Source of the DNA: a virus
DNA length: 31,138 nucleotides
Virus genome (UHGV): UHGV-0171672
Reading direction: 5' to 3' (one strand)
Shown: piece after piece, positions 1,256 through 21,545 of the stretch
Layout: every line of letters starts with the position of its first letter
Numbering within the stretch: position 1 is the stretch's first letter
Notes under the pieces: generated by a model
What the model was told of the DNA's origin: nothing
The model's database searches: none
Seen by the model: the letters and a program-made list of their open reading frames with translations, nothing else
Position numbers and translations under genes: made by a program

Positions 1256-1597
1256 TTAGCCAGCATTGCGACGAGATCGGGGTGATTTTTGGGTGGCTGG
1301 GATTGAATCCTGATCGTCCTCCGACTGAATGGAGCCATCAAGAGAGAGAGCCGGAGCTATCTGACCGGCAGCAGGCATTGTCTTATCTTTTATTAGCCAC
1401 ATCATGTATTTTTCAAACCGATCAACTTGGAGAACCATCTCAACAATTTTGGCTCTGGCGCTTTTTTGCCCTGATTCATAGTTCCTTATGGCAGCTAAAG
1501 ACAACCCCGTAATATCCGCAAATTCCTTTTGCGTTAGCCCTTCAGCCTTGCGTATTTGACGTAGCTTTTTTGCATAGTCTATTGACAAGATAACCAT
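1256..1597 (-). CDS. C: Immunity repressor, P2 C-like HTH protein
   Basis: HTH segment LTQKEFADITGLSLAAIRNYESGQ and the motif GQIAPAL shared with P2 C; divergent from the cox-like gene. ATG at 1597 chosen over the upstream TTG of the ORF track. Confidence 0.8.
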   Translation of the reverse strand: MVILSIDYAKKLRQIRKAEGLTQKEFADITGLSLAAIRNYESGQKSARAKIVEMVLQVDRFEKYMMWLIKDKTMPAAGQIAPALSLDGSIQSEDDQDSIPATQKSPRSRRNAG

Positions 1598-1616
1598 TTG
1601 AGTATTAACCTCTCGC

Positions 1617-7603: not shown

Positions 7604-8020
7604 ATGAAGAGCGTTAAGGGACTTTCAGATATTCAGGACTTCTTTAACTGGATGTGGGCGGTGGATCCCCTGCTGGCTTCCCGCCTGAACAACTGGCACG
7701 ACTATTACCGCCGCGCCTGTAAACAGGCTGCCCGCAGCGTCACCACATACGGGGATTTCTCCTTCACCGTGGACGGTCGTTACCGCGTGGACGTGAAAGG
7801 TGACGGTGATGGCTTTGGTTTATTTCACATCAACGGCACCGACAGTACCGCCATCAGCTGGTCATCGTCAGAGATGGCACTGGTTCTGGAAATGACAACC
7901 CACAGCGTGGCCGTGAAAGGCATATACACCGCAGAAGACTTTATCGGTGAATACCAGCGCCTTCTCGTGCTGTACCGCGCGGCGTTTCAGGAGGTCACTG
8001 GCGGGGAGTACGACGCATGA
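7604..8020 (+). CDS. Hypothetical protein upstream of A
   Basis: 138 aa, SD GGAGG; ATGA overlap with A. Confidence 0.6.
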   Translation: MKSVKGLSDIQDFFNWMWAVDPLLASRLNNWHDYYRRACKQAARSVTTYGDFSFTVDGRYRVDVKGDGDGFGLFHINGTDSTAISWSSSEMALVLEMTTHSVAVKGIYTAEDFIGEYQRLLVLYRAAFQEVTGGEYDA

Positions 8021-10530
8021 GTGACCGCAATGCACAGCTGGCGTACCCGTGGAACGCACCGCTACCGGTTATCGATCCTGAAACGTTCGGCAGAGCACAA
8101 CCAACCGCATTACGCCAGGCCATTCAGAGCTACATCAACGAGGACATTCGCATTGATGCCAGACTGGATGAAGAAACCGTCTCCTTCCTGACAAACACAG
8201 ACGAAGGCAAGCGAATTAATTCGCATCTTCACCACGACGAAGAGCGTCGGGTCAGACTGGAAAAACTGGCGAAGCACAAACGCGAGAATCCGCCCACGGT
8301 GGTATCGGAAGCCATGGCAGAACTTCGCGCCCTGCCCTCGTTTCTTGGCAACGTGCTCATTCGTGATCTGGCGCGTTTAAACCGCAAACAACAAAGCGCC
8401 CGCAATGAAGGCGTGAAAAACAACAACACTCACGTGGCCGATAACTTCGTTCGCCGTGGACTGCGCACACGCCTGAAACGCATCGAACAGGTGAATGAAT
8501 GCTTCGCCACGACGGCATTCAAAGCCACCGCAGCGCGTCATCGCCTTGATGAATTACTCATGCTGCCACAACTCAACCGTGATCAAATTCAGCGCCTTGC
8601 CACACTAACGGCGGCGGCATTTTCCACCGAACTGGAACGCATATGTGATGAAGTTACTGAGCGGACAGGAAAAGGCGACGATAACCTGTTTACCTGGTTG
8701 CTGACTTACCAGCAGCTGGCGCGCATGGCAATAAAACTGGGCGTGAACCCACCATACTGGCCGTCACTCGAGATCAGACGTGACCGCCGCACGGCACCAG
8801 ACCCTGAACTGGTACCGGGTGCGGTAATGCGTATCACCTGCGCCACCTGGTGGAACAACCAGCTGCGCCACCTCGCTGATCTCTGGCGGGAGGAATTACT
8901 GCGTGCCGCCGGAAGAGTATCGCGCAAGGCATCCCCCTACATCAGCCATGAGTCACTCCAGGAATTCCGGGAGAAACGCCAGCGCACCCGTGATTTTCTC
9001 AAAAGCTGGGACATTGAAAACGAAGACGGTGAACGCTTGAGTCTGGAGGACGTGTACTGGTCAGGGCTGGGGAATCCGCGCAACCGCCGCAACGAGATGA
9101 TGGCCTGCGTCAGAGGGATGGAACAGGTCGCCGAATCGCGTGGTGACTCCGCGTTCTTCGTGACAGTAACCTGCCCTTCCCGCTTTCACAGCGTGAACGA
9201 GGACGGCAGCCTGAACCCGAAATACAACGGTGCCACCGTGCGCGATGCCAGTGATTATCTGGTTTACGACGTCTTTGCAGCTGCAAGAAAAAAACTCAAC
9301 AAAGAAGGCCTGAGCTGGTACGGGGTGCGCACCGTTGAGCCACACCATGACGGCACACCGCACTGGCACATGCTGGTATTCACCGCCCCGGACAATGAAG
9401 AACGCATCATTGAAATCATGCGTGACGCAGCAATCAAATCAGATCGCGCAGAACTGGGGAATGATATTTCTCCGCGCTTCAAGTGCGAAAAAATCGACCC
9501 GGCAAAAGGCACACCGGCAAGCTACATCGCAACCTATATTGGCAAGAACCTGGACGCCAGCACCTTTCACGACAATGACCCGAAAACCGGCAAACCTTAC
9601 GCCGATAAAGAATCGGGAAAAACCATGGCGGAAACCGTGGAAAACGCCATTGCCTGGGCGAGTCTCCACCGCATCCGGCAGTTCCAGTTCTTCGGTATCC
9701 CGCCCCGACAGGTATGGCGTGAACTCCGCCGCCTTGCCGGACAAATGGAGCGTAACCCCGCATCACCGAAGCGCCTGGACCATGACGACATTGACGCCAT
9801 TCTGGCCGCCGCTGACGTGGGGTGTTTTGCCACCTACATCAACCGTCAGGGCGGCGTGCTCATTCCACGCAACCTGTACCTGATCCGCACCGCATACGAA
9901 ACCGCAGATGAGGCCAACGACTACGGCGAATTCCCGCAGCGCATCTACGGAATTTGTGCCCCGTCGCTCGGCGAGCGCTACACCATCTGTACCCATCCGG
10001 ACGAATGGAAACTGGTCAGAAAAGAAGCGAAATCCGACAACAGCACGGACGAGGGTTTTGACGTTGGGGGCGGCTTCGCCGCACCTTGGACTCGTGGCAA
10101 TAACTGTCCCCATGATGAAAAAACAGACACCGGAGAGGGTAAAAACCCACCACCGGAAACCAGGAAAGAACAAAAACTGGTCGTCCCGGGAGGTGATTTG
10201 GGTGAGTGGTTAAGGTCACTGACCCCCACAAAGCGAAAACAACTCACCAGGCAGCTGAAAGATGCGCCATCTGACACAAAAACCGTGAAAACCGGCGGCC
10301 CCACCACGCCCGATGACGTCATACATGTGCGTACAGCATTGCCGCTGACTGACGTCACCACCACCGTAATCAAGTCGGCACTGAGCGCGACGGGCGAGGA
10401 GCTACACAGTGGCGCAGCACTTTCCGTACACAGAGGTGCACGCGTTCGCCTGCCTGACGGGCGGATTGTGCACTGGGATGAGAAATCACGAAGCCTGGTG
10501 GCAGCAGATCAACCGGAGGTGAACCCATGA
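8017..10530 (+). CDS. A: Rolling-circle replication initiation endonuclease (P2 gpA-like)
   Basis: HUH motif TPHWHMLVF and paired tyrosines YIATYIGK; 837 aa. Confidence 0.9.
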   Translation: MSDRNAQLAYPWNAPLPVIDPETFGRAQPTALRQAIQSYINEDIRIDARLDEETVSFLTNTDEGKRINSHLHHDEERRVRLEKLAKHKRENPPTVVSEAMAELRALPSFLGNVLIRDLARLNRKQQSARNEGVKNNNTHVADNFVRRGLRTRLKRIEQVNECFATTAFKATAARHRLDELLMLPQLNRDQIQRLATLTAAAFSTELERICDEVTERTGKGDDNLFTWLLTYQQLARMAIKLGVNPPYWPSLEIRRDRRTAPDPELVPGAVMRITCATWWNNQLRHLADLWREELLRAAGRVSRKASPYISHESLQEFREKRQRTRDFLKSWDIENEDGERLSLEDVYWSGLGNPRNRRNEMMACVRGMEQVAESRGDSAFFVTVTCPSRFHSVNEDGSLNPKYNGATVRDASDYLVYDVFAAARKKLNKEGLSWYGVRTVEPHHDGTPHWHMLVFTAPDNEERIIEIMRDAAIKSDRAELGNDISPRFKCEKIDPAKGTPASYIATYIGKNLDASTFHDNDPKTGKPYADKESGKTMAETVENAIAWASLHRIRQFQFFGIPPRQVWRELRRLAGQMERNPASPKRLDHDDIDAILAAADVGCFATYINRQGGVLIPRNLYLIRTAYETADEANDYGEFPQRIYGICAPSLGERYTICTHPDEWKLVRKEAKSDNSTDEGFDVGGGFAAPWTRGNNCPHDEKTDTGEGKNPPPETRKEQKLVVPGGDLGEWLRSLTPTKRKQLTRQLKDAPSDTKTVKTGGPTTPDDVIHVRTALPLTDVTTTVIKSALSATGEELHSGAALSVHRGARVRLPDGRIVHWDEKSRSLVAADQPEVNP

Positions 10531-11517: not shown

Positions 11518-11835
11518 ATGCCAACACAGGTTGCAACAGAGGGACGACTGGCAGCAGACCCGAACACAAGGAGAACAACCAAAGGAACCAACGTCACAAC
11601 GGCACAACTGGCGGTATCACTACCCTGCCATGGCGCAGAACAGCCAACCACAATGTGGCTTTACCTTATTTCATTCGGGAAGCAGCACGAAGAACTGGCA
11701 AAACACAGAAAAGGCGATCTGATTCTGGTGCACGGAAACTTGCAGGTAAACAGGTATCAGGACAAGTACGGGCAACAGAAAGAGGGCTGGCAGTTGCTGG
11801 CGCAAAGCATTATCAGCTCAAGAACCGGGCGATGA
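11518..11835 (+). CDS. SSB-like OB-fold protein, truncated (no acidic C-tail)
   Basis: GRLAADPNTRRTTKGTNVTTAQLAV ... WLYLISFGKQHEELAKHRKGDLILVHGNLQVNRYQDKYG parallels the E. coli SSB OB-fold core. Confidence 0.6.
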   Translation: MPTQVATEGRLAADPNTRRTTKGTNVTTAQLAVSLPCHGAEQPTTMWLYLISFGKQHEELAKHRKGDLILVHGNLQVNRYQDKYGQQKEGWQLLAQSIISSRTGR

Positions 11836-11845
11836 CTTCACGCAT

Positions 11846-11886
11846 GTTACCCTTAGCAGCGAGGGTAACACAGGATTTCTTTTTTC
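11846..11886 (+). terminator. Rho-independent terminator ending the rightward early operon
   Basis: GTTACCC-N10-GGGTAAC stem followed by ACAGGATTTCTTTTTTC. Confidence 0.6.
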
Positions 11887-12592
11887 AGTCAAACCGAAAT
11901 CGGCCGCTTGTCGCGTATGCATAGGTGACCACCGCACCCAGCGCATTCACACGCTTCTTCACATAAATCACATTACCATCCTGATAGTCACCGTATGGGT
12001 AGCAAATAAAGATTGTTTTTTGCAAATCAGGATCATCAACAAATGCCCCTGAACAACTTTTTGAGCTACCGCGACTGTACTCATAGGGAGCGGAATAGAA
12101 TGAATCTTCACCCGGAAGAAAATATATCAGCGTAACCAGGAGGGTAAACAGAATCATCCAGGTAAGAAGGCACATACCCGAAAAAAACTTAAGATACGAT
12201 GTAACCCCGGTAAATTTAGACCGATCAACCAGGTTCTTTTTCAACAGGCACAGTGAGACAAAAACCGAAAGCACCACAGACACTGAAACAAGGCAGTTTG
12301 TCGTGAACGAATAAAGGTAGGTAATTCTGTAAACATCGTTTCGCCACCAAATAAAAAGAAAAATCCCCCCCAAAACAGAAAGCGTGACAAAAGTTAAATA
12401 AGGATATGAGTAATTTTTCACAGTTCTCACCCGGCAGTCTCCCACTGACTCAGACAGATGAATATCATCACCACCTGCCACAAAAAATCGCAAGATCAAA
12501 ACTACACAAAAGCGCACGAAATTGCACAATTTTTCTAATGTACTTTTTCCCCATTCCGCCCGGTAACGGCGCTGGCTGAGGCCGGTTTGCAC
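11885..12592 (-). CDS. Multi-TM membrane protein (cargo island, module 2); start uncertain
   Basis: At least three hydrophobic helices plus a ~80-aa C-terminal soluble region. The first ~25 codons of the track ORF overlap promoter-like repeat copy A, so a downstream GTG (12421 or 12430, after GGGTGAG) is the more likely start. Confidence 0.5.
   Translation of the reverse strand: MQTGLSQRRYRAEWGKSTLEKLCNFVRFCVVLILRFFVAGGDDIHLSESVGDCRVRTVKNYSYPYLTFVTLSVLGGIFLFIWWRNDVYRITYLYSFTTNCLVSVSVVLSVFVSLCLLKKNLVDRSKFTGVTSYLKFFSGMCLLTWMILFTLLVTLIYFLPGEDSFYSAPYEYSRGSSKSCSGAFVDDPDLQKTIFICYPYGDYQDGNVIYVKKRVNALGAVVTYAYATSGRFRFD
12511..12576. repeat. Promoter-like direct repeat, copy A
   Basis: agcgcacgaaattgcacaatttttctaatgtactttttcccc... 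aligns at ~75% identity (hand alignment) with 15438-15501. Confidence 0.5.
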
Positions 12593-12759
12593 GGTGCACG
12601 AAAAACGAGGCGAGTAGTGGATGAGTAAAAATTAATAATAAGTATAAGCAATGTCGATAAACCAAGACACAACAAGTATTCAACACAATTAATCATGCAC
12701 GTGCAAATAGCAATAACATTAACACATTATTTATATAAAAACAATCTGATATTATTTCG

Positions 12760-12790
12760 GTTGTGGGCTTGGTATTTTCAAACCCACAAC
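12760..12790 (-). terminator. Perfect 8-bp stem hairpin downstream of the three-gene module (non-canonical terminator candidate)
   Basis: GTTGTGGG-N15-CCCACAAC, 35 nt past the stop of the 263-aa gene in an AT-rich spacer; no clean U-tract. Confidence 0.25.
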
Positions 12791-12824
12791 AATAATATTA
12801 TTTCGAGATATTAAACATAGACAA

Positions 12825-13616
12825 TCACCCTATTTTTCTATGCATTTTCATGAGTTCCCTTATTAAGCTAGCATGAAAGATTGATACATCAGAAATCCTT
12901 GTATCAATAGATGAATCAATATTATCAGAAACCTTTTGCTCAAATAAATCGCAGATACCATCAAGTGACTCAATATCTTTTTCCAACTTAGAAAAACCCT
13001 TAAATAGATATAATGAATCCCTTAACTCCCCAAGCTTTGAAAATAGTTGGCTATCTAGTAATGATATAAATTCATCAGAGGGAAGCCCCATCGCATCCTT
13101 AAAATCTTCCGTAACTTCAAAAGCTAATCCATTAATTTTAGGGAGAATAACTTCTCGTAACCAATACCCTTCGTTTATAGCTTCATTTCTTCCTTTATAA
13201 TGCTGCCACAAAGGAACCCCTACAGATGCAATTAGCGCAATAATTGAAATTGCTATAGAGTACCATTCAGGTCCTGATTCAGGAACTCTAACGATATTAT
13301 AGAGATTCCCCGATGAGGTTGAGGGGTAATATCCATTCAGAACATAATTATCAGGTTTATCATAAAGAAGGTGCGGTGTAAACTTCCTTTCATAACTATT
13401 GCATAATTTTAGATCGCTATTTTTTCCAATGCATATATCAGCATTAAAAATGTTTCCACTCTTTGGTTCTATTACGTGAGACTCTGAATTTTGCGAATCC
13501 ATGTTAGACGCGGTTCTTTCTAGATATGTCGCAGAGCAAGCGGATATATTAACAAAAAAAATGACAGGCAATGCTGTCATTTTAAAAACAGAACACAAAT
13601 CAGAAGAACGGAACAT
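12825..13616 (-). CDS. Lipoprotein-like membrane protein with internal TM helix (cargo island)
   Basis: N-terminus MFRSSDLCSVFKMTALPVIFFVNISAC has a lipobox-like ISAC; internal helix WYSIAISIIALIASVGVPLW; 17-nt overlap with the upstream gene. Confidence 0.6.
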   Translation of the reverse strand: MFRSSDLCSVFKMTALPVIFFVNISACSATYLERTASNMDSQNSESHVIEPKSGNIFNADICIGKNSDLKLCNSYERKFTPHLLYDKPDNYVLNGYYPSTSSGNLYNIVRVPESGPEWYSIAISIIALIASVGVPLWQHYKGRNEAINEGYWLREVILPKINGLAFEVTEDFKDAMGLPSDEFISLLDSQLFSKLGELRDSLYLFKGFSKLEKDIESLDGICDLFEQKVSDNIDSSIDTRISDVSIFHASLIRELMKMHRKIG

Positions 13617-13944
13617 TTCGATGTAATCCTCTTCTCACAGCCCTATCCAGCTCAGAAAGCATTCCTTCTTTATAATTCACTCCATCTAAAGATGTTCTGC
13701 TATAAAATTCATTCGGAGATGAAAAAAGAGGCAATATATTCTCTAGCATACCCAAAAAGTATGAGCTTGACACAACCACACCATTCGGAATTGATAGAAA
13801 AATCCTATCATTGTTATCAAAAGTAAAGCGATCTATGCCAAAGAAACTATATGCCTTGCGACCATTATCACGCCCAGCAAATAATTTCTTGCCGCCATCT
13901 TTAACTAATTTATTGAAATCTATATAAATATTTGCCATTTTCAT
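13600..13944 (-). CDS. Small STAS-like (DUF4325-like) protein, partner of the GHKL ATPase
   Basis: 114 aa; segment IFLSIPNGVVVSSSYFLGMLENIL resembles the SSSF-type motif of DUF4325/STAS proteins; SD GAGGAA; 11 nt after the ATPase stop. Confidence 0.55.
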   Translation of the reverse strand: MKMANIYIDFNKLVKDGGKKLFAGRDNGRKAYSFFGIDRFTFDNNDRIFLSIPNGVVVSSSYFLGMLENILPLFSSPNEFYSRTSLDGVNYKEGMLSELDRAVRRGLHRNVPFF

Positions 13945-13955
13945 TTACCTATTCC

Positions 13956-15332
13956 TCAGGTTCTTTGAGTTGCATTTTCCGGTAAAGGAAAACGTATATT
14001 AATCATAACTCCCGGAAAACGGGCTTTCTGCATACACTTAAGATAGGTACGATCTGGTTCAGATTCAAGCCCTGTATTATTAAATGGATAAGTGAATTTG
14101 TCACTTTGGTTATCTAACGTTTGCTTTTTCAACTTATAAGAACCATCAAAGTTTATATGTGTGCATCCAGAAATTAAAGACATTCTGATGTTTCCACTTA
14201 GTTCTTTGGATAGTTCTTTTAAACTATCATGCATATCCTGGAAAAACTTCAATAGCTCAATGGTTCCCGTACCAGAACTATCTGTCTCCGTTTCATTTTT
14301 ACAACTAACCCGCCCCTGCAAAGCAGCGACTGTAATCAAACCTTCTCTAAACATCCCTTTTTTATTTATGTGTTTTTCCACATAAGGGATTATGTGATTG
14401 TTATATGAATAATGTTCTAAAGAAAGTCCTGAAAAAGTTTCATCAATAGTTTTTCCAAAGTTAAAAACAGCTATTTCACATGTTGGCTGTTTTAAGCCAT
14501 TATTTACAAACCCCCTCAAATACCAACGCGGACGCTGCTCAAGCCCACAATGTCTCTCTGCATTATCAAGTAATTCGCCCATGCAAGATGTTAGATGGTT
14601 TTCTGCCTTGCTAACTAATTTTAATTGATGATCACTTAGACACTCGTTTATATAATTAGTGAATTTCTCAGACATTCTATTTTTGGTATCTTGTGCAAAT
14701 GCAGACGCATTTTCCTTGCCGATACTATCAGCAGAGAATATTCTTTTCTTAGGGTTATCTTTTTTCGATTTTTCTGTTTCATCATGCACCTTCCCTGGCG
14801 TCACTTTATTTATTTCTTTAACCAACCCGATGTCACGAATAATTTCTAAATATTTTTCATCCTTCGGATAAATGCCATTAAGTTGTACTTGAGCATCTTT
14901 TAAATTTATATTGTGACGTTTGGCTGAGCTCAGTGCAACACCAAGGAGACATTCCGCACCTAAACAATGCTTTTTATTTTTAGTATAATCAAGCAAATAT
15001 GATTTACGTTTACCCCTGGCAATCAATCTAGTTACACCATGAATAAACAAAAGAGATTTTTCTGGATGATCAAACAAATCGAAATATTTAGGTATTATTA
15101 TTCTATCTTCTTTGCGACGAAGAGTTGCAGTATCATATTTCTTTACGGATGAAATACTTTCAATAAAAGTAGCCACCTGACTTTTCACTGGTGTTACTTC
15201 GTCAGAAAAATGTAACCTTTCATAGGCTTTATATTTAATTCTTCTTTTATTTTTTCTCTCAACGCCTTTTAAAAAGCGAATCCAACCACGTAAAAAGCGT
15301 TTTCTTGCATCCTTTTTATCTATTTTTTTCAC
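13956..15332 (-). CDS. GHKL-type (histidine-kinase-like) ATPase with basic N-terminal domain
   Basis: N-box ELLDNAERH (encoded around 14551-14577) and Gly-rich DSSGTGTIELL; GTG start at 15332 after AAGGTGA; K/R-rich ~240-aa N-terminal region. Confidence 0.7.
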   Translation of the reverse strand: MKKIDKKDARKRFLRGWIRFLKGVERKNKRRIKYKAYERLHFSDEVTPVKSQVATFIESISSVKKYDTATLRRKEDRIIIPKYFDLFDHPEKSLLFIHGVTRLIARGKRKSYLLDYTKNKKHCLGAECLLGVALSSAKRHNINLKDAQVQLNGIYPKDEKYLEIIRDIGLVKEINKVTPGKVHDETEKSKKDNPKKRIFSADSIGKENASAFAQDTKNRMSEKFTNYINECLSDHQLKLVSKAENHLTSCMGELLDNAERHCGLEQRPRWYLRGFVNNGLKQPTCEIAVFNFGKTIDETFSGLSLEHYSYNNHIIPYVEKHINKKGMFREGLITVAALQGRVSCKNETETDSSGTGTIELLKFFQDMHDSLKELSKELSGNIRMSLISGCTHINFDGSYKLKKQTLDNQSDKFTYPFNNTGLESEPDRTYLKCMQKARFPGVMINIRFPLPENATQRT

Positions 15333-15429
15333 TATTCACCTTACTTAACAAACATCTATACTACTTCGTTGCAAAGTATACATATCACTTGCTAATACAC
15401 AATATGGCTTCGAGATAATCCGCAGCATC

Positions 15430-15456
15430 TGCACAATAGTGCACAAATTTGCATAA
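15430..15456. promoter_or_regulatory. Three TGCA(C/T)AA heptamers at 10-bp spacing (candidate regulator binding array)
   Basis: TGCACAAtagTGCACAAattTGCATAA; two related copies in repeat A (GCGCACG at 12512, TGCACAA at 12523). Confidence 0.35.
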
Positions 15457-15501
15457 TTTTTTTGAACGACTTTTTGCCCTTCCGGCCCGCGTGGCGGCTG
15501 G
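15438..15501. repeat. Promoter-like direct repeat, copy B (upstream of the GHKL ATPase operon)
   Basis: agtgcacaaatttgcataatttttttgaacgactttttgccc...; see copy A at 12511-12576. Confidence 0.5.
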
Positions 15502-15700
15502 ATCCGTCAAGGATCCGTGCGTGCACAAAAAAACACGCTTTTTCTGCGCGCAGGCGACGAGGGAAGGGCGCCCGAATTGAGGGGTGGAAGGCAGGTTGCT
15601 TTATTTGGGGTCGTATTGCGCGTGATACGCCAGCAGTGAAGCCTGTTTTAAAAAACCACATCAAAACATGGTCAGGGAAACAGGCCGTCAGAATGCGTCT

Positions 15701-15732
15701 GGCGAGGTCGGAGATCGGGAGGGAAACGGACG
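15701..15732. other. Candidate cos region
   Basis: GGCGAGGTCGGAGATCGGGAGGGAAACGGACG begins like the P2 cohesive end as I recall it (GGCGAGGCGGGGAAAGCAC) and sits ~70-100 bp beyond the 3' end of Q, as in P2. Memory-based. Confidence 0.25.
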
Positions 15733-15748
15733 TCAGGAGCTGGAGAGT

Positions 15749-15773
15749 CGGGGCATAAATTTTTTATGCCCCG
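15749..15773. other. Perfect 11-bp inverted repeat (hairpin) between cos-like region and Q
   Basis: CGGGGCATAAA-TTT-TTTATGCCCCG; no adjoining U-tract on either strand. Confidence 0.4.
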
Positions 15774-15799
15774 GCGAAGCAGCCGACAAGCGAAGCGCG

Positions 15800-16843
15800 T
15801 CAGCTGGCACCATCCTGAAGCAGCGAATAGGGATTAAAGCGCATCACTTCAACCCCAAGCCATTCATTGACATGCTTCATCGCTTCCATGACCGGTTGCA
15901 ACTCGTTGATGAAAAATACCCTCGCCGCCTTCTCAACGTCACCGAACGCCGCGTTCCCGTCAGGCATTGCCCCCATCAGCTGAGGCGGTACACGGTGAGC
16001 CGCAAGGATATCGTCGCGGGTACCCCCCTTGATGTTAAGGAATTCGTCCTTCGCGGTGATTTGCTGGAACGGCAGTATTTGCACACCATCCTTGCCGCCA
16101 CCTGGCGCGTGCAGAAGGATATTGCGGAACGCCCCCTTGCCACGGGATTCCGTGAGTGTTTTCTTGATGGCTTCCACGCTTTCAGCGTTTGCCTGGGCGG
16201 CACCAACATAGACAATGCACCCGGCATGTGAACCGTTGTCATAGTAGAGCTTGCGGAACGTATCCGCTGAGTTCGACAGACTCACCGACAGCAACCCACC
16301 GATATACTCCGGCATCCCGTAGATTTCCTGGTTGATATCGGGGTTCAGAACGTGGCACACAGCCCCCTTACGGAAAGCAAATTCAGAACCATCATCATTG
16401 AGGTACCAGTACGTATCGAGATCACTGCCCCGCCGCGTGTATTTCGCCAGCGCAGGACGAAGCGCAATGGGTTCACCGAACTTGTTGCGGCGGACTTCAA
16501 GATAGGCATTACCGAACACGAACCAGTCCAGCGCAAACGCGGAAAACGCCTGGCGGGACAGTAGCGGATGAGGAACAAAGCAGCCGTTCAGGGCATTACG
16601 CTTAAAATACAGGGCCGACTGGTGCCATGATGCACGACGCGAGGCGCGAGCAATGGCATTCCAGTCCATGGGGGTGTCATAGTAGCGGCCATTATCGGCG
16701 CACGACATGTTATCAAGCAGATCAAGACGGCTTGCTTCATAAGGACCGTCAAACGTGAAAGCACTGAGTGACGGCGCTGATTTCAGTGCATCAGCCAGTG
16801 AGCCCGTGCCGCGCTTTCCGGTGTATTTTTTACGTTTACTCAT
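15800..16843 (-). CDS. Q: Portal protein (P2 gpQ-like)
   Basis: 347 aa at the P2 Q position; sequence recognisable as P2-family portal; 5-nt gap after P. Confidence 0.9.
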   Translation of the reverse strand: MSKRKKYTGKRGTGSLADALKSAPSLSAFTFDGPYEASRLDLLDNMSCADNGRYYDTPMDWNAIARASRRASWHQSALYFKRNALNGCFVPHPLLSRQAFSAFALDWFVFGNAYLEVRRNKFGEPIALRPALAKYTRRGSDLDTYWYLNDDGSEFAFRKGAVCHVLNPDINQEIYGMPEYIGGLLSVSLSNSADTFRKLYYDNGSHAGCIVYVGAAQANAESVEAIKKTLTESRGKGAFRNILLHAPGGGKDGVQILPFQQITAKDEFLNIKGGTRDDILAAHRVPPQLMGAMPDGNAAFGDVEKAARVFFINELQPVMEAMKHVNEWLGVEVMRFNPYSLLQDGAS

Positions 16844-20735: not shown

Positions 20736-21545
20736 ATGCTGACACCGGCACAACGATACCTTCAGCGCGCGATGGCGCATCATCGGGCTGATCCATTCAA
20801 TCGCGAAGAGCAGCGAACACGAACGGCACATGAACAGGTTCTTCACCAGTTACGCCTCGCACAGTTGCAGCTGAATGGCGTGCAGTCAAACATCGCGAAA
20901 GCGGAGCTGAAGAAGCACCTGATACCGAATTTTGAAGGCTGGATCGACGGCACACTGGCAGGCGACAGCGGACGCCAGGACGAAGTCATTACCACCATGA
21001 TGGTGTGGGCAATTGACTGCCGGGATTATCCGCTGGCACTGCGTATCGGTGAGTACGTCATTCGTCACCGGCTGGCACTGCCGGACAACTTCGGGCGCGA
21101 TTCGGCGACCGTGCTCACCGAAGAAATTGCCGAAGTTGTGCTGACAGAAGCCGCCACCAACAGCGAAACCGACTTATCCGGCTATATCCGTATGCTGGAC
21201 GAGCTGGATGCACTGGTTCACGACCAGGACATGCCGGATCAGGTTCGTGCAAAACTACATAAGGCGCGGGCATTTTCACGGCGCGCATCAGGCAGTACGG
21301 AAGACATGACTGTGTCACTTGGTCTGCTGCGTGAAGCCATGCGCATCAATCCGGCAGCGGGCGTGAAGCGTGAAATCGCCACGCTGGCCAGAAAGGTATC
21401 AAAGGTTCAGCCGGAACCGGAAAAACCGGCAGAAGAGAAAAGTAAATCGAAAGCAACATCAGGGCGCAAAAAGCCGACTACAAAAGCGACGGCCAGAAAA
21501 GCCACGAAAAAAACCGCCGCAAAACCGGCGCGCAAGGCGACCTGA
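20736..21545 (+). CDS. M: Terminase small subunit / endonuclease (P2 gpM-like)
   Basis: Matches the P2 M pattern, including the Lys/Arg/Ala/Thr-rich C-terminal tail. Confidence 0.85.
   Translation: MLTPAQRYLQRAMAHHRADPFNREEQRTRTAHEQVLHQLRLAQLQLNGVQSNIAKAELKKHLIPNFEGWIDGTLAGDSGRQDEVITTMMVWAIDCRDYPLALRIGEYVIRHRLALPDNFGRDSATVLTEEIAEVVLTEAATNSETDLSGYIRMLDELDALVHDQDMPDQVRAKLHKARAFSRRASGSTEDMTVSLGLLREAMRINPAAGVKREIATLARKVSKVQPEPEKPAEEKSKSKATSGRKKPTTKATARKATKKTAAKPARKAT

Follow-up and report, generated by a model that had tools for sequence, protein, structure and literature searches.

A 31,138-nt stretch of the virus genome UHGV-0171672 (the window, meaning the whole of the DNA that was analyzed) carries two directly repeated copies, A and B, of a short sequence built around phased TGCACAA-like heptamers. 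We conclude that these copies are probably paralogous right-end flanks of the cohesive-end site (cos) of P2-like phages: copy B would belong to the working packaging site and probably serves in terminase docking, and copy A would be a stranded relic. The window is a P2-like prophage whose head proteins are 34 to 46% identical to their P2 counterparts. Because its genes run from A through the cargo to Q and P, the repeat pair is located in the known gpA-to-gpQ hotspot beside cos (PMC9122126). Coordinates below are those of the whole 31-kb window (Table 1), and cos positions are distances from the inferred 19-nt cohesive end (the 19-mer), with the top-strand nick placed between 15552 and 15553 by alignment with P2.

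A repeat array at a fixed distance from cos

A repeat search paired 12502 to 12562 with 15429 to 15489 on the same strand, ungapped over 61 nt at 75% identity; with gaps allowed, the alignment extended to ~12611 and ~15545 (~110 nt). The local alignment score of the two copies was 54, compared to 17.2 ± 2.5 for 2,000 dinucleotide-preserving shuffles (z = 15; 0/2,000 reached 54), and copy B has no match elsewhere in the window except copy A. The initial annotation had described two segments of ~75% identity in the same orientation and, in copy B, the string TGCACAA-N3-TGCACAA-N3-TGCATAA. Both descriptions are confirmed, and the pairwise alignment that it proposed places the similarity far above that of shuffled sequence. 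Its start coordinates were 9 nt late, however (the true left edges are 12502 and 15429), and copy A, credited there with two related heptamers, has three. That the resemblance arose by chance in AT-rich sequence is a negligible prospect, given the shuffle result and given that each copy shows >96% identity with a cos flank from another prophage lineage.

Successive heptamers in copy B start 10 bp apart, with three nucleotides between them, and stand at −123, −113, and −103; a fourth repeat follows at −31. Copy B runs up to the inferred 19-mer, with the portal gene next, whereas copy A is cut at −15 and lacks the 19-mer. The first heptamer of copy A reads TACACAA in the window and TGCACAA in the related prophages L001 and L009 and in the near-identical prophage L004 (a G-to-A change). 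We do not take this change as a sign of decay, since about one change would be expected over 110 nt at the overall divergence of 0.6%. No Rfam family matched 11800 to 16000 at an E value of ≤1 except for a spurious small nucleolar RNA match, and the single-strand folds of both copies were unremarkable (z = −2.7 and +1.5).

Relatives of the window were retrieved through the portal protein (80 loci, 68 distinct sequences); the array was counted in 85 loci, and the survey covered about 190 related P2-like loci in all, where each genome has one array, always beside cos and the portal gene. Homology to the window starts at 15429 to 15431, at the first heptamer, and continues to cos in 66 loci, and everything to the left of that heptamer differs among the 68 distinct sequences. 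Column information jumps from 0.12 to ~1 bit at −123, and the conserved backbone to the right of the cargo hotspot begins with the copy B array. The claim that the element marks a cargo boundary therefore stands: in the 68 distinct sequences, homology begins exactly at the first heptamer. Because the packaging segment cannot be lost, the array forms the fixed right-hand wall of the hotspot. The search of other P2-like hotspots suggested in the initial annotation did recover the repeat, but as a single array linked to cos in 76 of 85 loci; the window and its near-twin L004 are the only ones with two. When viral contigs were scanned for the exact pattern, 119 usable stretches were obtained, each with a single array. 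In 109 stretches, a portal gene lies ≤2.5 kb downstream of the array; the remaining 10 stretches end <400 bp past it.

Spacing is conserved more strictly than sequence, in that spacer letters drift between lineages while spacer length is kept. Repeats 3 and 4 lie 72 bp apart in 59/61 sequences of the window's clade and in 65/66 P4-like sequences; in the P2 clade, the distance is 71 to 73 bp in 48/62, and most of the others are 10 or 20 bp longer. The repeats thus keep a fixed helical phase beside the nick, at spacings of 10, 10, and 72 bp, and the array is kept irrespective of the direction of the neighboring cargo gene. Together, the array and its spacing suggest that a single phased nucleoprotein complex forms at cos. 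We propose that copy B (15430 to 15552) and the adjoining 19-mer make up the working packaging site of the prophage, where the repeats at −123, −113, −103, and −31, on one face of the helix, would dock terminase, probably through the small subunit gpM, after which the large subunit would cut cos. Judging from the sequence, the gpM-like small subunit is the simplest candidate for a reader of the heptamers. The idea that gpM is unusually diverged between clades was rejected, as every head protein is 34 to 46% identical to that of P2.

A mosaic of two prophage lineages

Among complete Escherichia coli genomes (n = 5,426), the whole arrangement of the window was found in 1, together with two simpler classes. 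L001-type prophages have the membrane-protein gene together with a copy A that is 99.4% identical to that of the window and continues without a break into ...CGAAAAACGAGGC AATTGCAGCGCGCA GGCGACGAGGGAAGGGCGC, a cos run that aligns with the annotated P2 cos GGCGAGGCGGGGAAAGCAC. L002-type prophages have a three-gene operon directly after the gpA stop codon, followed by copy B and then cos. The window is a mosaic of the two: L001-type up to 12611, L002-type from 12612 to 15545, and L001-type again from 15555. Since the mosaic switches at 12611|12612 and within 15546 to 15554, copy A corresponds to −123 through −15 of the parental cos flank. Microhomology is absent from the left junction, where the parental 14 bp AATTGCAGCGCGCA and the cos that followed are gone. 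Thirty-three E. coli genomes match one half or both (left half only in ~24, right half only in 8, and both in 1 of 5,426), and the breakpoint is at the same base in each. Both junctions lie ≤15 bp from a cos nick. The reverse derivation, with the L001 type as a deletion product between the two window copies, was rejected because L001 has AATTGCAGCGCGCA before its cos and the window lacks these 14 bp.

As a result, the working cos of the window is chimeric, with a flank of the L002 lineage and a 19-mer of the L001 lineage (15546 to 15571); elsewhere in the 68 related sequences, the window's flank type is always paired with GGTGACGGGGGAACAGCCC. Covariation of heptamer type with the 19-mer was considered and rejected, since L066-type phages combine a P2-like 19-mer (GGCGAGGCGGGG...) with TGCACAA repeats.

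Table 1. Features of the window in and around the duplicated cos flank
Feature	Position	Strand	Basis or description
Gene A, replication endonuclease	8017–10530		
Parental cargo gene, hydrophobic protein of ~181 aa	11885–12430	−	ORF; no Pfam/PADLOC family
Copy A heptamer array (probable relic)	12503–12529	+	TACACAA 12503–12509, CGCACGA 12513–12519, TGCACAA 12523–12529
Copy A fourth repeat, TGCACGA	12595–12601	+	72 bp beyond third
Left junction	12611–12612	.	−15 of L001-type cos flank joined to GAGTAG, last 6 nt of L002-type gpA
Donor segment, whole L002-type hotspot	12612–15545	.	Operon, upstream region, and cos flank; 99.3% identical to L002
Acquired three-gene operon (458, 114, and 263 aa)	12825–15332	−	ORFs, RefSeq annotation
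Copy B heptamer array	15430–15456	+	TGCACAA 15430–15436, TGCACAA 15440–15446, TGCATAA 15450–15456; sequence
Copy B spacer between repeats 3 and 4	15457–15521	+	T7 run, then GC-rich segment with GGATCC-N5-GGATCC
Copy B fourth repeat, TGCACAA	15522–15528	+	−31 from cos; counterpart of TGCATTAAAACC, edge of 55-bp P2/P4 cos core
Hairpin and T7 run, intrinsic-terminator-like	15533–15551	−	Directly beside cos, between fourth repeat and cos; consensus scan
Right crossover interval GCGCGCAGG	15546–15554	.	9 bp identical in donor and parent, spans inferred nick
Inferred 19-nt cohesive end GGCGACGAGGGAAGGGCGC	15553–15571	+	Position and alignment with annotated P2 cos GGCGAGGCGGGGAAAGCAC
Portal gene Q (gpQ)	15800–16843	−	Backbone gene right of cos
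gpM-like small terminase subunit	20736–21545	+	Pfam PF05944, E = 3e-38; 34% identical to P2 gpM

These relations suggest the following history. The parental phage would have had its membrane-protein gene directly next to cos, with copy A as the flank. A 2.95-kb donor piece, reaching from the last 6 nt of gpA to the cos nick and carrying the operon with its own flank, would then have been joined to this parent, by an illegitimate join on the left and, on the right, within the common GCGCGCAGG at the nick. Deprived of its cutting site, the old flank would be left as an inert scar that separates the two stacked cargo modules. A second relic occurs in the viral contig L074 (6510 to 6700; the same contig as L290), where a cos unit of another type, complete though mutated, sits ~130 bp left of the working array; its changes from the nearest intact unit include mutated heptamers and, in the 19-mer, substitutions and the loss of 2 nt. 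It is an independent second fossil of cos-region duplication. An active internal cos would expose the genome to cutting at that point and so cannot be retained; inactivation came by mutation in L074 and by truncation before the nick in the window.

How the DNA ends came together can be pictured in more than one way. Terminase-cut ends have been suggested as recombination substrates (PMC9122126). Under such a scheme, the right end of the recipient, resected by 14 nt, would have been joined to a break at the donor gpA stop codon, and the right cohesive end of the donor would then have paired with the left end of the recipient to give the chimeric cos. An ordinary illegitimate join on the left and a microhomology crossover in GCGCGCAGG on the right, with selection for one working cos, fit equally well. 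A left junction anywhere within ~125 to 790 bp would have been viable, so its position near the nick (14 bp away, expected by chance in ~2 to 11% of cases) is only mildly suggestive. We therefore put forward only tentatively, as a possibility that we would not ourselves favor, the wider proposal that the array is the long-sought terminase docking site (the equivalent of cosB) of the whole P2/P4 family as well as the hotspot wall, and that the window is a fossil of cargo gain at terminase-cut ends through ligation of a resected right end to an internal break in the DNA of a coresident phage and annealing of the donor right cohesive end to the recipient left end. If true, this end-joining fossil would give the cohesive-end recombination idea of PMC9122126 its first support at the sequence level. 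In kind, a cos-accessory repeat array and a recombination scar are ordinary, familiar categories.

Alternative explanations for the array

The initial annotation read the element as a shared regulatory module in front of each cargo unit, that is, a promoter or operator duplicated before each leftward unit whose heptamers would bind RNA polymerase or a co-controlling regulator. Both copies do lie upstream of minus-strand genes, the heptamers read TTGTGCA (−35-like) on the minus strand, and the P2 old-tin mRNA starts are annotated at 33424/33426, 26 to 28 bp left of the first TGCAT. The array is nevertheless single in each phage, and its position is fixed to cos and not to genes. Among 57 distinct left flanks, 48 could be classified from crude open reading frame (ORF) calls, and the nearest ORF was convergent on the array in 36 and divergent in 12. 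Many left flanks finish in plus-strand terminator hairpins, phage 186 has its annotated terminator t95b 38 bp before its array, and in P4 the array is on the side of cos away from the hotspot. A sigma-70 consensus scan found no minus-strand site in either copy; its one match, a weak one, was on the plus strand (15430 to 15457), and the overall count was not above that of shuffles. The best candidates from hand reading are weak and are found beyond the repeat, in the cargo-specific DNA to the left of copies B and A, respectively (TTGTGT-N16-TATACT at 15375 to 15402 and TTGCGA-N18-GATGAT at ~12463 to 12492). The P2 old-tin promoter is a leftward cargo promoter that abuts the array and is part of the cargo, not of the conserved block. 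A regulatory module of this kind was thus not borne out, we regard the promoter explanation as distinctly unlikely, and we caution against reading the conserved block as a cargo promoter. Other regulatory sites were also considered and set aside. A sigma-54 promoter (GTGCAC-N4-TTGCAT against TGGCAC-N5-TTGCA, read by eye) lacks the GG and is one base short in spacing, and on inspection the spacer holds neither an Ogr/delta activator site (TGT-N12-ACA) nor an integration host factor (IHF) consensus.

The initial annotation had also raised the possibility of cassette boundaries for recombinational exchange. The boundary itself is real, since the first heptamer borders the cargo in all relatives, and the block acquired by the window does lie between two direct copies, as would be expected if a dedicated recombinase swapped cassettes at an attC- or dif-like site and the copies were the ends of one cassette. 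The details, on the other hand, do not support site-specific exchange. The boundary is ragged by 1 to 2 bp (C|TGCACAA, T|TGCACAA, A|TGCACAA, and CC|GCACAA), the window junctions lie outside the heptamers (one at −15 in copy A, the other at the cos nick), and the left edge of the donor block is the gpA stop codon, where there is no repeat. The copies, moreover, are just 75% identical and come from two lineages, and duplication is very rare, being present in 2 lineages of ~150 distinct contigs (the window with L004 and, as a decayed cos, L074). A recombination site is in our view very improbable. A further proposal is that the heptamers bind some other factor common to helper and satellite, such as a host nucleoid protein or a late regulator, which bends or insulates DNA near cos. 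Phased repeats and a fixed 72-bp gap would suit any wrapped nucleoprotein complex, and the motif differs by clade (TGCAC versus TGCAT) while the head proteins are all similarly diverged (34 to 46% identity), so that no single protein is singled out. A host factor is hard to reconcile with a motif that changes with phage clade inside the same host species, and the elements with the TGCAT form (P2, 186, PSP3, and P4) share packaging specificity (PMC9122126). We consider this explanation unlikely.

Some observations weigh against our own interpretation of the array as a packaging-site element. The position of cos in this clade comes from alignment with P2. Donor and parent are identical over the 9 bp of the right crossover, a stretch that ordinary microhomology-mediated recombination could use just as well. 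The −35 of the P2 old-tin promoter abuts the array, so a transcriptional role in some phages is possible. Finally, in the accessible parts of the literature the P2/P4 cos is described as 19-nt cohesive ends within a 55-bp core common to helper and satellite (PMC9122126, PMC9594776, and PMC5694545), and the core as cited (PMC9594776 and PMC5694545) takes in the fourth repeat, with the three upstream repeats (~−100 to −125) outside it. A search of the accessible literature for terminase sites in the P2 cos flank yielded only this 55-bp core and no account of the three upstream repeats.

Cargo genes and related packaging sites

In the window, gene A is followed by small plus-strand genes, including those for a MarR-like protein and a single-stranded DNA-binding protein, then by the minus-strand cargo and by Q, with the large terminase gene P beyond it. 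The parental cargo gene and the acquired operon had no Pfam or PADLOC match, and the operon had no PDB sequence match either. RefSeq (PGAP) starts the membrane-protein ORF at GTG 12592 (11885 to 12592, minus strand), which would make copy A coding. This extension is probably an overcall, since the copy A stretch is homologous to noncoding cos flank in all relatives. In L001, the membrane-protein region is 99.4% identical over the aligned 1,213 nt, yet no gene is annotated there. A more plausible start is GTG 12430, preceded by GGGAG, or 12421. The present analysis thus corrects a probable overextended gene call across copy A. The initial annotation placed both copies ~90 to 105 bp upstream of minus-strand start codons, which is roughly right for copy B (GTG 15332) and, for copy A, depends on the start chosen.

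The "GHKL" label of the 458-aa protein of the operon has as its sole basis an N-box-like ELLDNAERH motif. Given its place in a defense hotspot and its presence in no fewer than 8 further E. coli genomes, the operon as a whole is a candidate uncharacterized antiphage system. Just downstream of its last gene is a 23-nt inverted repeat (12749 to 12801; 78% complementary, 7-nt loop), which may be a terminator that sets the new operon apart from both the relic and the older cargo gene. Between cos and Q there is a second variable stretch, a smaller one (window, ~15660 to 15740; L003, 3068 to 3571; L002, 5457 to 5707), with an extra 504-bp plus-strand ORF in L003 and unrelated sequence in L002. In Ralstonia phages, a hotspot has been described between cosL and Q (PMC5694545).

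The closest comparison is with P2 and P4. The 55-bp core of their cos reportedly goes back to Ziermann and Calendar (1990). The window resembles these phages in the place of its cos, between the gpA-side hotspot and portal gene Q, in a fourth repeat that is the counterpart of TGCATTAAAACC at the core edge, in a GC hairpin by the nick, and in a 19-mer that matches that of P2 at 14/19 positions. It differs in that its clade has TGCACAA instead of TGCAT and another 19-mer. The minus-strand cos hairpin is kept across the clade; its analogue in P2 and P4, a GC hairpin with TTTTAAT after it, lies inside the 55-bp core. The window's hairpin could be a stop for leftward read-through from the portal/terminase operon or part of a structure recognized by terminase. 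TGCAT repeats stand at −123/−111/−101/−29 in P2, at −124/−111/−101/−29 in 186, and at −120/−111/−101/−29 in PSP3.

The TGCAT array is thus common to helper phages and satellites (P2, 186, PSP3, and 66/67 P4-like elements), with repeats at −124/−111/−101/−29 in 65 to 66 of 67 distinct P4-like satellites; no satellite with a TGCACAA array was found among the 119 array-bearing viral stretches. P4 has only packaging in common with its helpers, and P2, 186, PSP3, and P4 have a common packaging specificity (PMC9122126). In P4, the array is on the psu side of cos and the hotspot is on the opposite side. P4-like satellites keep the segment from psu through cos +26 and vary only beyond +26; therefore, the interval kept by phage and satellite alike is −123 to +26. 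This naturally minimal kept interval is a possible guide for the design of cosmids or transducing particles. The wall of the hotspot is the repeat that opens the phased set of four, whose positions phage and satellite have in common. Four divergent P4-like satellites (L243 to L248, ~1572 to 1614, minus strand) have a second TGCAT-N-TGCA-N-TGCAT-like string with 1 mismatch, ~2 kb upstream of psu, which may be due to chance or be another binding site.

Previous work on the gpA-to-gpQ hotspot left the mechanism of exchange open (PMC9122126 and PMC13586616), whereas in the window both junctions are resolved to the base and lie ≤15 bp from a cos nick. The window is one such hotspot with two stacked cargo modules, and its relic exemplifies the recombination remnants mentioned by those authors; it offers a base-resolved case of such stacking and a datable recombination scar. 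Short repeats also accompany cos in the P2-like phage phiCTX, whose record (NC_003278) annotates repeats R4 to R6 spanning cos, with GCAGAAAG-type repeats in the last 100 bp before it. The phiCTX motif and spacing differ from those of the window, and attP is nearby.

In phage lambda, cosB consists of the sites R3-I1-R2-R1 for the small terminase gpNu1, beside cosN. As a working analogy, the window array resembles cosB in having several short repeats in fixed phase beside the nicking site, which on this parallel would serve to anchor terminase. Its repeats, however, are direct heptamers in a 3 + 1 arrangement with 72 bp between, its spacer has no evident IHF-site consensus, and its small terminase belongs to an unrelated family (PF05944). 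The side of the nick differs as well: the window array is on the right-end side, whereas lambda cosB is on the left-end side.

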